A stretch of DNA of 6,387 nucleotides from a virus (IMGVR_UViG_2706794666_000010); one strand, 5' to 3'. Positions 791-5,575 are shown, counted from the first letter of the stretch. Notes: a model not told the origin generated them from the letters alone. Numbers and translations: made by a program.

Positions 791-1849
791 TCATCCGTTC
801 TGGCTGACTAAATCCTGTACTTCCCGAACCGTCTGCTCAAAACGTTCAGTCTCCAGCTCAACGCCAATTGCACGACGCCCGAGCGCCAGTGCCGCTTTCA
901 CTGTCGAACCCAACCCCATGAAAAAATCTGCAATCAGGTCACCCGGACGACTGCTAGCGCTGATTATCTGCTGCAGCATTTCTGCCGGTTTTTCGCACGG
1001 ATGTTTCCCGGGATAGAACTGCACCGGTTTATGCGTCCACACATCGGTATACGGCACCTGCACCGTCACGCCAAAATACCGCCGCAGATGTTTATATTCA
1101 CTCAGCAGCTCCGCATACTGCCGGTTCAGTGAGGTATACGTATCCACCAGCTGGTGGTGGAGCTTTTCCAGTTCACCACGCCGATGCTTCTCTTCTGCCA
1201 CCCGGGCAAACAGCGCCTGTAATTTCAGATAATCGCTTTCATTCGGCAACTGCCACTGACCGGCACTGAACCAGTGCGACACCATGTTTTTCTTTCCTGT
1301 GGCATCTGCAATCTGTTTTGCCGTTATCCCCAGGGCAGCTCGCGCATCACGAAAGTAAGAAATCAGCGGGGCCATCACATGCTGTTTCAGTGCACTGCCC
1401 TTCGCCGCATACCCGGCATCTTTCGGACGATACGGCCCCTGATAATGTTCCGCGAACAGAATGCGCTCTGTGGCGGGGAAATACGCCCGCAGGCTTTCCT
1501 TGTTGCATCCGTTCCAGCGTCCGGACGGCTTCGCCCAGATAATATGGTTCAGCACACTGAAGCGTTCACGCATCATGATTTCGATATCAGATGCCAGGCG
1601 ATGACCACAGAACAGGTAAAGACTTCCGGCAGGTTTCAGCACCCGCCAGAACTGCGCCAGACACTGGTCCAGCCACTTCAGGTAATCATCGTCGCCCTTC
1701 CACTGGTTATCCCAGCCCTCAGGCTTCACTTTAAAGTACGGCGGGTCCGTGACTATCAGGTCAACAGAATTTTCGGGTAACGACCGGATAAATTCCAGGC
1801 AGTCGGCGTTGATTAACTCACAACTGGATATTTTTACAGTATTAAGCAT
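791..1849 (-). CDS. DNA methyltransferase, beta-class amino-MTase (N6-adenine or N4-cytosine), orphan (no adjacent restriction gene)
   Basis: 352-aa ORF with the catalytic DPPY motif near the N-terminus (SVDLIVTDPPY) and the AdoMet-binding FxGxG motif near the C-terminus (DFFMGLGSTVKAALALGRRAIGVE); this motif order defines the beta class. Ends 40 nt upstream of the tRNA cluster. Confidence 0.85.
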   Translation of the reverse strand: MLNTVKISSCELINADCLEFIRSLPENSVDLIVTDPPYFKVKPEGWDNQWKGDDDYLKWLDQCLAQFWRVLKPAGSLYLFCGHRLASDIEIMMRERFSVLNHIIWAKPSGRWNGCNKESLRAYFPATERILFAEHYQGPYRPKDAGYAAKGSALKQHVMAPLISYFRDARAALGITAKQIADATGKKNMVSHWFSAGQWQLPNESDYLKLQALFARVAEEKHRRGELEKLHHQLVDTYTSLNRQYAELLSEYKHLRRYFGVTVQVPYTDVWTHKPVQFYPGKHPCEKPAEMLQQIISASSRPGDLIADFFMGLGSTVKAALALGRRAIGVELETERFEQTVREVQDLVSQNG

Positions 1850-1943
1850 GGATCATTAAGCCTGTCTCTGATAGGCTCATTCTGCTTTTGCGCAAAGCAG
1901 TGGGCCTGAGGTTTGCTTGTGAACCCAACGCATGAGCAGATGG

Positions 1944-1970
1944 CTGGTGGGTGCCCCTAACACCCACCAG
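1944..1970. repeat. Inverted repeat with 10-bp perfect stem (ctggtgggtg / cacccaccag) and 7-nt loop; contains Chi in both orientations
   Basis: Read directly from sequence; located about 100 nt upstream of the methyltransferase start codon. A second 7-bp-stem palindrome lies at 1882..1900. Confidence 0.7.
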
Positions 1971-1985
1971 CCGCCCATTTACCAC

Positions 1986-2013
1986 AAATAAAAAAGCCTT
2001 CACTGCGGAAGGC
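1986..2013 (-). terminator. Rho-independent terminator candidate (minus strand)
   Basis: Minus-strand hairpin GCCTTC-cgcagt-GAAGGC followed by UUUUUUAUUU. Overlaps the stop codon of the 65-aa ORF. Confidence 0.5.
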
Positions 2014-2197
2014 GTCTGTAACAACCGAACTGATAGTCTGCCAGACCCGCCATAACCAGCTGGGTCAGTATTAACTGGCAGCGTTCGCGTGAAAGGTAAG
2101 TATTCTGCGCTATCTCCCCGACTGTCGCCGGTTCGGTAACGCTTAATTCATTAAACACCACTCTGGCGGTTTCTGTCATATCCTGCTGTTTTAGCAT
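2000..2197 (-). CDS. Hypothetical 65-aa protein, or non-coding leader between promoter and terminator
   Basis: ORF with a purine-rich tract (ggaaaaggaaaag) upstream of the ATG, but bracketed by two terminators with its stop inside a terminator stem. It could equally be part of a lambda-6S-like pR'-tR' leader. Confidence 0.3.
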   Translation of the reverse strand: MLKQQDMTETARVVFNELSVTEPATVGEIAQNTYLSRERCQLILTQLVMAGLADYQFGCYRRLPQ

Positions 2198-2316
2198 GTC
2201 TTTTCCTTTTCCGGTTAACGTGACACACCAATAACTCTTGTCGAAAAAGCCAGCAAGCTGAAAGACAGGTATTCACCGCCACCAGCGCGTTTACTGTACT
2301 GACGCGATTTCAGTCA

Positions 2317-2340
2317 TAAAAAACCCGCTCGGCGGCGGGT
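2317..2340 (-). terminator. Rho-independent terminator candidate about 85 nt downstream of the Q-like gene
   Basis: Minus-strand hairpin ACCCGC-cgccga-GCGGGU followed by UUUUUUA. Confidence 0.5.
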
Positions 2341-2388
2341 TGTAGAAACTCTTCTAACGTCAGGCATAAAACGCCCATCGTTATGACG

Positions 2389-2416
2389 AATTTACCACAG
2401 ATTCCGGAAAAATCAA
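2389..2416 (-). promoter_or_regulatory. Candidate sigma-70 promoter immediately after the Q-like gene (pR'-like position)
   Basis: Minus strand TTGATT -16 nt- TAAATT, beginning 5 nt after the Q stop codon. No qut-like element can be recognised by eye. Confidence 0.3.
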
Positions 2417-2421
2417 CCTTG

Positions 2422-4580: not shown

Positions 4581-4622
4581 ACGGACGCGTTGGCCGTTCG
4601 GAGTAAGGGAGCCTGACGGAGA

Positions 4623-4904
4623 TTATCCAGTGACGGTAGTCGAGGCTAAGGGCTTTTTTAACCTCGCATCCGCGCCTGCGGTAACACTGAATGAGCCATT
4701 CGGCCTGTTCTTCAGTGCATGGGGGATGCTGGTACCAATCAGATTTAAATGCGTGAGAGCGCCGCCCGTGCCTGCTGGCAAAGACGGCTGAATTATCAGA
4801 ATTGTGTAGTCTGGAAGGCAGTGGCTGACAATAGCGCCATTCTCAACGCGCACAGTATAGAGGCCATCTTCACTAAAAATTTCACGTAATTCTTCGATTT
4901 TCAT
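4623..4904 (-). CDS. Hypothetical 93-aa protein (position equivalent to rem in Qin-type prophages)
   Basis: ATG at 4904 with SD-like GGAAGGA about 9 nt upstream; the N-terminal half looks protein-like and the C-terminal half is Ser/Gly/Thr/Pro-rich. In frame with the downstream DUF968-like ORF, separated by a single TAA. Confidence 0.45.
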   Translation of the reverse strand: MKIEELREIFSEDGLYTVRVENGAIVSHCLPDYTILIIQPSLPAGTGGALTHLNLIGTSIPHALKNRPNGSFSVTAGADARLKKPLASTTVTG

Positions 4905-5023
4905 CAACAGAATCCTTCCAGATAAATAGCACTCCCCTGTTCGGGGTCCATCCCTCTTCTCCCTGCGCGCTACTTAAGTATTTTTGATTCTATTCCGGCA
5001 CCATCTAAAACTTCAAACGCGTT

Positions 5024-5055
5024 GAAAATAAAAACAAAAACCCGCCGAAGCGGGT
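5024..5055 (-). terminator. Rho-independent terminator of the hok transcript
   Basis: Minus-strand hairpin ACCCGC-uucg-GCGGGU followed by UUUUUGUUUUUAUUUU, about 70 nt after the hok stop. Confidence 0.7.
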
Positions 5056-5124
5056 TAAGTGTGGGTGCATTGAGGATGCCTGACCCATCAGAGGTGGCGA
5101 GGGATTTCTCCCCCGCCTGGTCTC

Positions 5125-5280
5125 TTACTCCTCAGGTTCGTAAGCTGTGAAGACAGCGACCTCCGTCTGGCCGGTTCGAATTCGTACCTCGCAGAGGTCT
5201 TTCCTCGTTACCAGTGCCGTCACTATGACGGTTAAACAGATGACGATCAGGGCGATTAACATCGCCTTTTGCTGCTTCAT
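5125..5280 (-). CDS. hokD: Hok/Gef-family type I membrane toxin (HokD/RelF-like, 51 aa)
   Basis: Translation MKQQKAMLIALIVICLTVIVTALVTRKDLCEVRIRTGQTEVAVFTAYEPEE matches the Hok family as I recall it (HokC/Gef is almost identical in pattern); strong SD AAGGAG 9 nt upstream of the ATG. Confidence 0.9.
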   Translation of the reverse strand: MKQQKAMLIALIVICLTVIVTALVTRKDLCEVRIRTGQTEVAVFTAYEPEE

Positions 5281-5337
5281 AGCCTGCTTCTCCTTGCCTT
5301 TCGGCACGTAAGAGGCTAACCTAGATTTGCCGTTCAT
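5125..5337 (-). CDS. Mok-like in-frame N-terminally extended reading frame overlapping hok (70 codons)
   Basis: Upstream in-frame ATG at 5337 preceded by GAGG adds MNGKSRLASYVPKGKEKQA before Hok. This resembles the MokC extension ending ...KVKEKRA-MKQ as I remember it. Confidence 0.4.
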   Translation of the reverse strand: MNGKSRLASYVPKGKEKQAMKQQKAMLIALIVICLTVIVTALVTRKDLCEVRIRTGQTEVAVFTAYEPEE

Positions 5338-5456
5338 AGATTGAGCCTCAGATTAATGTTAAGCGTCTTGCCGGACGCGTAATGTTAACTGGGGCTTTTC
5401 TCTATCTGCCTTTTGGTGTTCATGCCTGAGACAGATAGCCTCAAGCACCCGCTGCA

Positions 5457-5484
5457 ATTCTACTTAACTCTCCTTTTCCCGCAA
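5457..5484 (-). promoter_or_regulatory. Candidate sigma-70 promoter of the hok/mok mRNA
   Basis: Minus strand TTGCGG -16 nt- TAGAAT; the predicted transcript to the terminator at about 5024 would be roughly 425 nt, typical of hok-family mRNAs. Confidence 0.4.
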
Positions 5485-5491
5485 ACCGTTT

Positions 5492-5575
5492 TTATCCCCA
5501 GCGGCAAATCGAATACACCACCAGCGCCACCGCCATCGCAATTCCTACCGTTGTTAATGCTTCAGGCCAGGTCAT
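5492..5575 (-). CDS. 27-codon hydrophobic micro-ORF ([27 protein letters not shown]), not in the supplied ORF track
   Basis: ATG overlaps the stop of the 114-aa gene (ATGA); GGAGG 10 nt upstream; single predicted transmembrane-like segment. Coding status unproven. Confidence 0.3.

Follow-up and report, generated by a model that had tools for sequence, protein, structure and literature searches.

Dense Chi octamers in both orientations in the nin-Q-methyltransferase region of a lambdoid prophage of the ompW-integrated type

The window analysed here is the whole 6,387-nucleotide viral sequence IMGVR_UViG_2706794666_000010, and the subject of this study is the cluster of ten Chi octamers that it carries. 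The window was compared by BLAST with complete E. coli genomes and phages, annotated from its colinear relatives, scanned for tRNAs and Rfam families, and its proteins were searched against Pfam and PHROGs. By these comparisons it is part of a lambdoid prophage of the mEp460/PPompW-like type integrated at ompW, and matches to it occur in 5167 of 5426 E. coli genomes. A lambdoid organisation (cos and terminase, head, tail, int, early operons, nin, Q and lysis) is found in the relatives L001 and L002 and in the annotation of mEp460_ev081 and PPompW, while the window itself displays only the nin-Q-methyltransferase-tRNA portion of this layout. Its genes follow the order hok/sok, DUF968 (HNH), RusA, Q, methyltransferase and tRNA, and every gene is on the minus strand. 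Since these genes read rightward in the standard λ map, the minus strand of the window corresponds to the top strand of the phage. In the colinear prophage of E. coli 042 the window lies ~5.6-12 kb from the right cos end.

The central genes, all on the minus strand, begin with DUF968/YdfU at 3649-4547, an HNH-type nuclease of which 299 N-terminal codons are visible (PF06147; PHROG 96 'HNH endonuclease'; annotated likewise in relatives). It adjoins the RusA resolvase gene in the prophage, and the two appear as one open reading frame (ORF) at 3240-4547 because a mask of N at 3384-3648 hides the C-terminus of DUF968 and most of rusA. The late antiterminator Q follows at 2422-3243 (273 aa, Pfam PF03589), then a 65-aa ORF (orf65, 2000-2197) and an N6/N4 DNA methyltransferase (MTase) of 352 aa at 791-1849 (PF01555, E=8e-42), which is 75% identical to gene 51 of phage LLS. 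A terminator scan placed intrinsic-terminator-like stem-loops with T-runs on the minus strand at 2322-2341, downstream of Q where tR' is expected, and at 1996-2013, at the end of orf65.

Chi signals the host nuclease RecBCD to change from DNA degradation to recombination. The exact octamer, GCTGGTGG, was searched on both strands of the whole window, of which 5857 bases are unmasked, and ten copies were found: four on the plus strand (1150, 1943, 3857 and 3909) and six on the minus strand (1144, 1964, 2279, 4315, 4373 and 5518). The first-pass annotation of this DNA had listed ten sites split four to six between the strands, and the recount of exact matches returned an identical list. Because all genes are on the minus strand, six Chi are on the phage top strand, the orientation active in λ, and four are on the bottom strand. 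The relatives of the window come from E. coli, Shigella and other Escherichia, hosts with the E. coli-type RecBCD that this exact octamer requires.

Dinucleotide-preserving shuffles of the window (n=200) contained 0.24 Chi on average and two at most. As a chromosomal baseline, 226 kb of E. coli 042 were taken, made up of four 50-kb stretches and the chromosomal flanks of the prophage; the Chi density was 0.168/kb, so that ~1.0 would be expected in a stretch of the window's size, and no 5857-bp window in the 200 kb of the four stretches held more than four. The probability of at least ten Chi at the 042 density is 1e-7 under a Poisson model and 9e-6 if the overdispersion seen is fitted with a negative binomial, and it is ~1e-6 with the published K-12 density (1008 Chi per 4.6 Mb; figure via Zheng et al. 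2025, PMC12315714). The window therefore has ~10 times the chromosomal Chi density, 1.7 Chi/kb over 5.9 kb with nine sites within 3.2 kb, and the earlier claim of a density above the host background stands, as ordinary chromosome never exceeded four in an equal window. Chi on the E. coli chromosome, ~75% of which are co-oriented with replication, share with the window the motif and the preference for the sense strand of genes, but the window differs in its density and in its mixture of orientations within a few kb. A contig 100% identical to the window over the unmasked parts (L015) has the same ten Chi, and no Chi was found in the stretches of this contig equivalent to the two N masks of the window (280-543 and 3384-3648).

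Six of the Chi lie in annotated genes, one (5518) in a possible 27-aa ORF, and three are non-coding. A single repeated peptide or DNA repeat as the source of all sites was rejected, since the peptide contexts and reading frames differ and no direct-repeat relation was found. Two sites overlap in the MTase gene: Chi 1144..1151 (minus, top strand; codons Q-L-V-D) and Chi 1150..1157 (plus, bottom strand; codons H-H-Q-L) are the left and right halves of a 14-bp double-Chi palindrome, CCACCAGCTGGTGG, at 1144-1157, just as first described. Across eight MTase lineages the top-strand Q-L-V-x site is realised in four and the bottom-strand H-H-Q-L site in six (15% expected for each lineage), in both cases ~5 times expectation. 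Site 1144 is Chi at the same position of the coding sequence (CDS nt 699) in LLS gene 51, and among close alleles it is Chi in 18 of 29, the alternative reading being TGACCAGC.

Two further opposed Chi form a non-coding hairpin at 1942..1972, with 1943-1950 on the plus (bottom) strand and 1964-1971 on the minus (top) strand. The hairpin had been reported at ~1944-1970 with a 10-bp stem; it exists, but its measured stem is 12 bp, perfectly paired between 1942-1953 and 1961-1972 around a 7-nt loop. It follows the orf65 terminator by 25 nt and precedes the start of the MTase gene by ~115 nt. Its two arms have different histories, as site 1964 is unchanged in all 14 distinct relatives and is kept with its flank even in phage LLS, whereas site 1943 is Chi in just 4 of 14 variants, the majority reading GCTGGCAG. 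The third non-coding Chi, 2279..2286 (minus, top strand), is 36 nt downstream of the terminator after Q and invariant in 11 of 11 distinct relatives, and thus both non-coding top-strand Chi (2279 and 1964) lie 25-36 nt downstream of a minus-strand intrinsic terminator.

The conservation pattern bears on the view that palindrome and hairpin have a structural or regulatory role, as an RNA stem-loop or a protein-binding site for example, and that the Chi in them are incidental. The RNA fold of 1850-2020 (minus strand) is more stable than that of shuffles (z=-3.1), and the non-coding region upstream of the MTase is ~80% identical to that of LLS (window 1850-2000, minus strand; L098, which is LLS, 39274-39440). 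However, the arms are not co-conserved and show no compensatory changes, the stem in LLS is imperfect, and elements of this kind would cover at most two to four of the ten sites. There is also no T-run after the hairpin on either strand, and the terminator scan found 2341-2322 and 2013-1996 but not the hairpin, which is hence not an intrinsic terminator; the hairpin as a terminator or conserved RNA was rejected on these grounds. We consider a structural origin of the pairs highly improbable. Separately, the MTase leader (1850-2000, minus strand) may hold a regulatory element besides Chi. The perfect palindromes are plausibly lineage-specific perfections of quasi-palindromes, possibly through template switching, and because they are lineage-specific, one member of each pair is probably secondary. 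The label 'bidirectional' given to the cluster is thus right in that both orientations are present but overstates the symmetry, with six of ten sites in the λ-active orientation and one partner of each palindromic pair (1943 and 1144) lineage-specific.

DUF968 is the densest Chi gene, with two sites on each strand. On the bottom (plus) strand, Chi 3857..3864 encodes V-H-Q-Q (CDS nt 684) and is retained in 99% of 67 alleles, the xHQQ site being Chi in two further lineages, and Chi 3909..3916 encodes A-T-S as GCC ACC AGC (CDS nt 632), a site that is also Chi in the SfII homologue at ~43% amino acid identity. On the top (minus) strand, Chi 4315..4322 falls in the conserved A-G-G of the VIRAAGG motif (CDS nt 226) and is Chi in 7 of 19 lineages against 7% expected, while Chi 4373..4380 encodes P-L-V-E (CDS nt 168) and is retained in 39% of close alleles, the others carrying Chi at nt 42 or 99 instead. 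The remaining site, Chi 5518..5525 (minus, top strand), lies between orf114 and sok and is retained in three of five distinct relatives. It is contained, as A-L-V-V, in a possible 27-aa hydrophobic (membrane-peptide) ORF at 5492-5575 (minus strand), which is unannotated and has a start that overlaps with the stop of the 114-aa ORF preceding it.

Among close alleles (85-100% identity) the retention of single sites ranges from 0.29 to 1.0, compared with gene medians of 0.6-0.8. Persistence in homologs, which had been suggested as a check on the cluster, consequently divides the sites, some of which are invariant and others variable. Because divergence among these alleles is too low and sites turn over between them, this comparison was replaced by an analysis of encodable versus realised sites in saturated lineages. 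One locus (L010) that had been taken as a 59%-identical paralogue with a conserved Chi layout is a frameshifted pseudogene whose real divergence is much lower, and it was dropped as deep evidence.

At the codon level, codons were permuted within each of the seven visible coding sequences, which preserves the protein and each gene's own codon usage. These synonymous shuffles gave 1.16 Chi against the 6 observed, and none of 2000 reached 6. Encodable positions were then defined as those where the protein sequence permits Chi on either strand, with expectations from single-codon frequencies. DUF968 realises four of its five encodable positions (0.46 expected), its SfII homologue (~43% identity) three of three and its LLS homologue two of four; the Q gene has no Chi and just one encodable position. 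The ratio of observed to expected Chi in the window genes is 4.6 in sense and 17 in antisense, compared with 2.4 and 1.8 in 176 chromosomal genes, so that synonymous codons yield an excess on both strands. The same was seen in 19 DUF968 lineages below 85% protein identity, SfII-like and LLS-like clades included, whose four-fold synonymous sites have all but reached saturation (identity 0.36, where codon bias alone would give 0.30): 37 sense Chi were observed against 15.3 expected (21 against ~3.5 without the C-W-W motif) and 7 antisense Chi against 0.78. The bottom-strand A-T-S site is Chi in four of the six lineages that keep the residues, with ~2% expected in each, although its flanking codons vary freely. 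This codon analysis indicates that the Chi sites are favoured and not accidental.

The same numbers bear on whether the Chi could be a by-product of conserved peptides (C-W-W, H-H-Q-L-V, x-L-V-E, A-G-G and A-T-S) written in codons that E. coli favours (CTG, GTG, CAC, CAG, ACC and AGC), without any selection for Chi. C-W-W does yield Chi almost automatically (p ~0.71), every coding Chi site uses common codons, and chromosomal genes realise Chi 1.8-2.4 times above the single-codon prediction; dicodon usage has been argued to be the main cause of Chi frequency on the chromosome (Subramaniam & Smith, bioRxiv 10.1101/2021.07.08.451572). Such usage would nevertheless have to produce a count that no usage-preserving shuffle attained and an excess 2-9 times above the chromosomal baseline in the window and the 19 saturated lineages, while none of the 34 encodable positions in the prophage's own head/tail arm is realised. 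Moreover, three or four of the sites are non-coding, two of them invariant, and λ and LLS have near-identical codon usage yet 0 and 23 Chi, respectively (Zheng et al. 2025, PMC12315714). A by-product of codon usage is therefore unlikely to explain the cluster.

The distribution of Chi in related elements was consistent with a local excess. The relatives L001 and L002 keep the same Chi sites as the window. In the complete prophage of 042 (53.3 kb), 12 Chi are on the top strand and 4 on the bottom strand; all 16 fall at 0.51-0.97 of the vegetative map (Kolmogorov-Smirnov (KS) p=0.002), and all four bottom-strand Chi fall within the cluster studied here. No Chi was found in the ~27 kb of head/tail genes of this prophage (L002 1-14400 and L091 1-11300), where ~1.9 would be expected from codon usage at the 34 encodable positions and ~4 at the chromosomal realisation rate, which suggests avoidance of Chi in the left arm; the left arm of LLS, in contrast, is Chi-enriched. 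Over 89 distinct related loci the density is 3.6 Chi/kb in DUF968, 1.0-1.6/kb in the Q-downstream/MTase part and 0.05-0.3/kb in the remainder, where nearly all are on the top strand. In 239 kb of right-arm DNA from the 19 DUF968 lineages, Chi is the commonest of 56,808 octamers (151 copies) and its complement, at 50 copies where an order-3 Markov model predicts 9.1, is sixth; the corresponding densities are 0.61/kb on the top and 0.20/kb on the bottom strand, compared with 0.084/kb per strand on the chromosome. The loci compared extend 6-10 kb from DUF968, and almost identical alleles occur in different types of phage.

For cryptic prophages, Zheng et al. (PMC12315714) have raised host-type amelioration, by which a resident and partly defective prophage would gain chromosome-like Chi in the orientation favoured by its replichore. 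The window is flanked by insertion sequence (IS) copies, its matches in 5167 of 5426 E. coli genomes would suit a long-resident element, and the top-strand Chi of the 042 prophage coincide with the replichore-favoured strand. Amelioration should bring the density to that of the chromosome, however, and not ~10 times beyond it, and it would hardly spare a Chi-free head/tail arm in the same prophage. In addition, the viable free phages LLS, SfII and mEp460_ev081 have Chi at the same positions, and a single replichore orientation does not predict the bottom-strand enrichment. We find this explanation very unlikely.

Chi enrichment has been described in lambdoid genomes that lack a RecBCD inhibitor (Bobay, Touchon & Rocha, PLoS Genet 2013, PMC3784561). 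Phage LLS has been isolated and its growth is enhanced by RecBCD, and among 68 lambdoid phages without a Rec module, 62 have at least 8 Chi on the top strand, which as a rule cluster at the right end (Zheng, Casjens, Davidson, Amundsen & Smith, Genome Res 2025, PMC12315714). In the scheme of that study LLS is class A, while 'Tritos' and 'Gifsy-1' are class B; the 'nuclease only, no anti-RecBCD' type (class B 'Tritos'), which also lacks a strand-annealing protein and an SSB, carries 7-21 top-strand and 2-6 bottom-strand Chi. The early-left operon of L002 encodes an 823-aa protein with a DnaQ-like 3'-5' exonuclease domain together with DicB, DUF1482, Rha and Xis, and neither a strand-annealing protein nor Gam/Abc2 was detected there by Pfam and PHROGs, several small ORFs being without known function. 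Given a DnaQ-like exonuclease alone, without an annealing protein or Gam/Abc2, the prophage type would belong to the 'nuclease only' class, an assignment that is taken from relatives of the window and not from its own genome. The Chi-rich class has at least 4, typically at least 8, top-strand and at most 6 bottom-strand Chi per genome, with right-end clustering of the top-strand sites at KS P<0.1; the 042 prophage has 12 and 4 and clusters at p=0.002, and the window alone has 6 and 4.

The window shares with this class the lambdoid architecture and Chi that cluster in the right part of the map, mostly on the top strand, and its relatives have no detectable RecBCD inhibitor. LLS in particular has the same order of DUF968/HNH, Q, small ORFs, MTase and lysis genes as the prophage type studied here; its MTase, 75% identical, has Chi at the same CDS nt 699, and it has in common with the window the conserved non-coding Chi upstream of the MTase. 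On the other hand, the right end of LLS has ~1.1-1.35 Chi/kb and the window a denser 1.7/kb, 3 of 23 Chi are on the 'inactive' strand in LLS but 4 of 10 in the window, and opposed Chi pairs as palindrome and hairpin are a feature of the window, unlike the LLS class. LLS is also an isolated phage, whereas the window copy is an IS-bounded prophage fragment. The cluster is thus a clear and particularly dense further example of a recently published lambdoid trait and not a new phenomenon; the one aspect that the literature consulted does not cover is that bottom-strand Chi are enriched, and apparently maintained, in the DUF968-Q-methyltransferase region.

RecBCD enters DNA at a double-strand end and degrades it until Chi is met from the 3' side, after which it loads RecA. 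A single Chi is recognised with only partial efficiency, so serial sites raise the chance of recognition. In λ, the right cos end is open during packaging, and a rolling-circle tail is rescued by correctly oriented Chi and RecA. Taken with the codon and distribution results, we judge that the cluster is probably an array of Chi under selection in the right arm of a lambdoid prophage that depends on RecBCD. Phages without a RecBCD inhibitor and a strand-annealing recombinase would rely on the RecBCD-Chi-RecA pathway of the host, and Chi would build up in their genomes, above all toward the right end. RecBCD would enter at the right cos end left open in packaging, and probably also at the first-injected end, and would unwind and degrade the DNA leftward until a top-strand GCTGGTGG is reached from the 3' side. 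RecA would then be loaded on the 3' tail, and invasion of a sibling genome by this tail would rescue the DNA and yield the concatemers required for packaging. The entry points, like any fitness effect of the array, are what we infer from this arrangement. The six top-strand Chi fit entry at the right cos end and would serve RecBCD moving leftward from it. The four bottom-strand Chi need entry from the left side and would act on RecBCD moving rightward, either from a putative ori-proximal end of the rolling-circle (σ) tail or from an internal break, with the MTase palindrome and the hairpin serving as two-way Chi. The first-pass annotation had proposed that dense Chi would protect linear phage DNA from RecBCD and stimulate exchange through RecA. 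This core idea agrees with the evidence and with the published model, in which dense Chi in a phage genome bring RecBCD into play, curb the breakdown of linear DNA and favour RecA-dependent recombination (PMC12315714, PMC3784561), but the symmetry that came with it is overstated and the link to the end junctions is not supported. Rescue has further been argued to need RecA and a homologous partner, and not merely attenuation of the nuclease (Subramaniam & Smith, bioRxiv 10.1101/2021.07.08.451572).

A more tentative possibility is that the bottom-strand Chi are themselves positively selected in the nin-Q-methyltransferase region of RecBCD-dependent lambdoid phages, where they would occupy almost all the positions able to encode them, the MTase palindrome and the A-T-S site of DUF968 among them. 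RecBCD would in that case regularly enter at an end other than the right cos end, the candidate ends being that on the ori side of rightward rolling-circle tails, or one left by a break in the HNH nuclease gene or close to it, and the region beside the RusA resolvase would be a dedicated two-sided zone of break repair and recombination. In DUF968 the top-strand Chi are 5' and the bottom-strand Chi 3' of the gene centre. Bottom-strand encodable sites are realised in 0 of 3 cases before aa 160 and in 7 of 11 after aa 194 (Fisher p ~0.19, numbers small); a convergence of Chi around the DUF968 centre was rejected, as the test was informal and the counts too few.

Two other systems are informative about orientation. 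In phage P1 and its relatives, Chi are abundant on each strand and become denser toward the two ends of the genome (Subramaniam & Smith, bioRxiv 10.1101/2021.07.08.451572). P1 is, like the prophage of the window, temperate, and its two Chi orientations are likewise read as serving RecBCD from either side, but P1 lies outside the lambdoid group, uses headful packaging from pac and must recombine its terminal repeats to circularise, and its orientations are segregated to opposite ends, whereas those of the window are interleaved within ~3 kb. The λ chi+ mutants in red gam phage and the rescue of rolling-circle plasmid tails (Lam 1974; Kobayashi 1982; Dabert 1992) involve the same octamer and enzyme as the window. 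Activity there depends on the orientation to the RecBCD entry end, and Chi with RecA allows linear or sigma-form DNA to survive; these are single engineered or mutational sites with measured activity, as opposed to a natural ten-site array read from sequence. P1/P7 also encode PdcB (AF234172.1 88955-89656), a distant DUF968 homologue of ~26% identity, and the P1 group is likewise Chi-rich and RecBCD-dependent.

The two orientations could alternatively flank exchangeable cassettes, notably rusA-Q, so that Chi spread with and because of mobilised modules; RecBCD arriving from either side would be turned recombinase just outside the cassette, favouring transfer between lambdoid genomes. The minus-strand sites 1144, 1964 and 2279, then Q and rusA, then the plus-strand sites 3857 and 3909 do have the geometry for rescuing intervening linear DNA, the Q region is mosaic across relatives with different Q types adjoining the same DUF968, and Chi turn over between alternative positions. 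This geometry rests on few sites, though, and the sole junctions visible in the window are IS ends, which give no Chi-proximal exchange breakpoints. We hold module exchange as the origin of the array to be quite unlikely, while noting that it is compatible with a selected array in a RecBCD-dependent phage.

Several observations weigh against a selected array. The window was chosen for its Chi richness, so the single-window P values given above are inflated, the lineage-level tests being less affected. Expectations at encodable positions use single-codon frequencies, for which the chromosomal baseline corrects the dicodon effect in part, and after scaling to this baseline the coding excess in the window is ~3-fold (6 against ~1.9). 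Individual sites are unevenly conserved, and selection, if present, acts on the number and position class of sites with turnover. Four of the ten sites are in the orientation that the published model calls inactive. At 16 per 53 kb (0.30/kb) the whole 042 prophage is just modestly denser than the chromosome, so the excess is local; mEp460_ev081 has 7 top-strand and 2 bottom-strand Chi without significant right-end clustering (p=0.21), and PPompW_132418 has just 3 and 1. The 042 top strand is also the replichore-favoured strand at the ompW locus, so orientation bias alone cannot separate phage from host selection. Finally, IS3-family copies lie at both ends of the segment, which may be a remnant, and the absence of an anti-RecBCD function is taken from relatives.

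The codon-resolved results are an independent confirmation that some lambda-like phages recruit RecBCD by writing Chi instead of inhibiting the enzyme, in a prophage family found in most E. coli genomes. Prophages that depend on RecBCD could be recognised by the density and orientation of their Chi, and the trait is relevant to defence systems that sense RecBCD inhibition, to Chi-bounded CRISPR spacer acquisition and to the mosaicism that recombination generates around Q/stx in Shiga-toxin phages. The bottom-strand excess, if selected, would indicate a second, unrecognised RecBCD entry point in lambdoid replication.

The ends of the window had been read as a mosaic junction tied to Chi-driven exchange. 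Positions 1-98 and 6290-6387 form a perfect 98-bp inverted repeat beginning TGAGGTGTACTGGC, which is absent from the colinear relatives and recurs elsewhere at variable spacing. In L015, the DNA adjoining the repeat encodes OrfA (HTH_Tnp_1, PF01527) and OrfB (rve, DDE, PF00665), as in the IS3 family, whose terminal repeats start with TG. The ends are therefore the same terminus of a left (1..98) and an inverted right (6290..6387) IS3-family copy, outside the prophage proper, that bracket a 6.19-kb prophage segment; the layout is either composite-transposon-like or an assembly/contig break at IS copies. As IS insertions or contig breaks at IS, these ends lend no support to Chi-driven exchange, and that reading is abandoned. 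An ORF at 6091-6321 and a short ORF from 68 start inside the IS ends and read outward from them, and are probably not genes.

The remaining features of the window, all on the minus strand, are a tRNA-Arg at 591-667, a tRNA with a CAU anticodon at 675-750 (Ile2 according to the annotation of relatives), a 94-aa ORF at 4623-4907, a hokD-like ORF at 5125-5280, the sok antisense RNA at 5275-5450 (Rfam RF01794, 112 bits) and small nin-region ORFs at 5572-6055. Together, hokD and sok make up a complete hok/sok-type type I toxin-antitoxin locus (5125-5450, minus strand). A third tRNA (tRNA-Arg) lies directly left of 591-667 in relatives; in the window its 5' part is under the N mask at 280-543 and only the 3' portion, ~544-577, is visible. 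One relative of the DUF968 gene, 81% identical, is in an Escherichia-type lambdoid segment on a 22.9-kb contig (L008, JAGZPX010000007.1) binned as a metagenome-assembled genome of Veillonella parvula, and this contig is probably mis-binned. L015 has an indel polymorphism relative to the window at 4816/4817, where it holds 250 extra nt (1733-1982 of L015) in or beside the 94-aa ORF.

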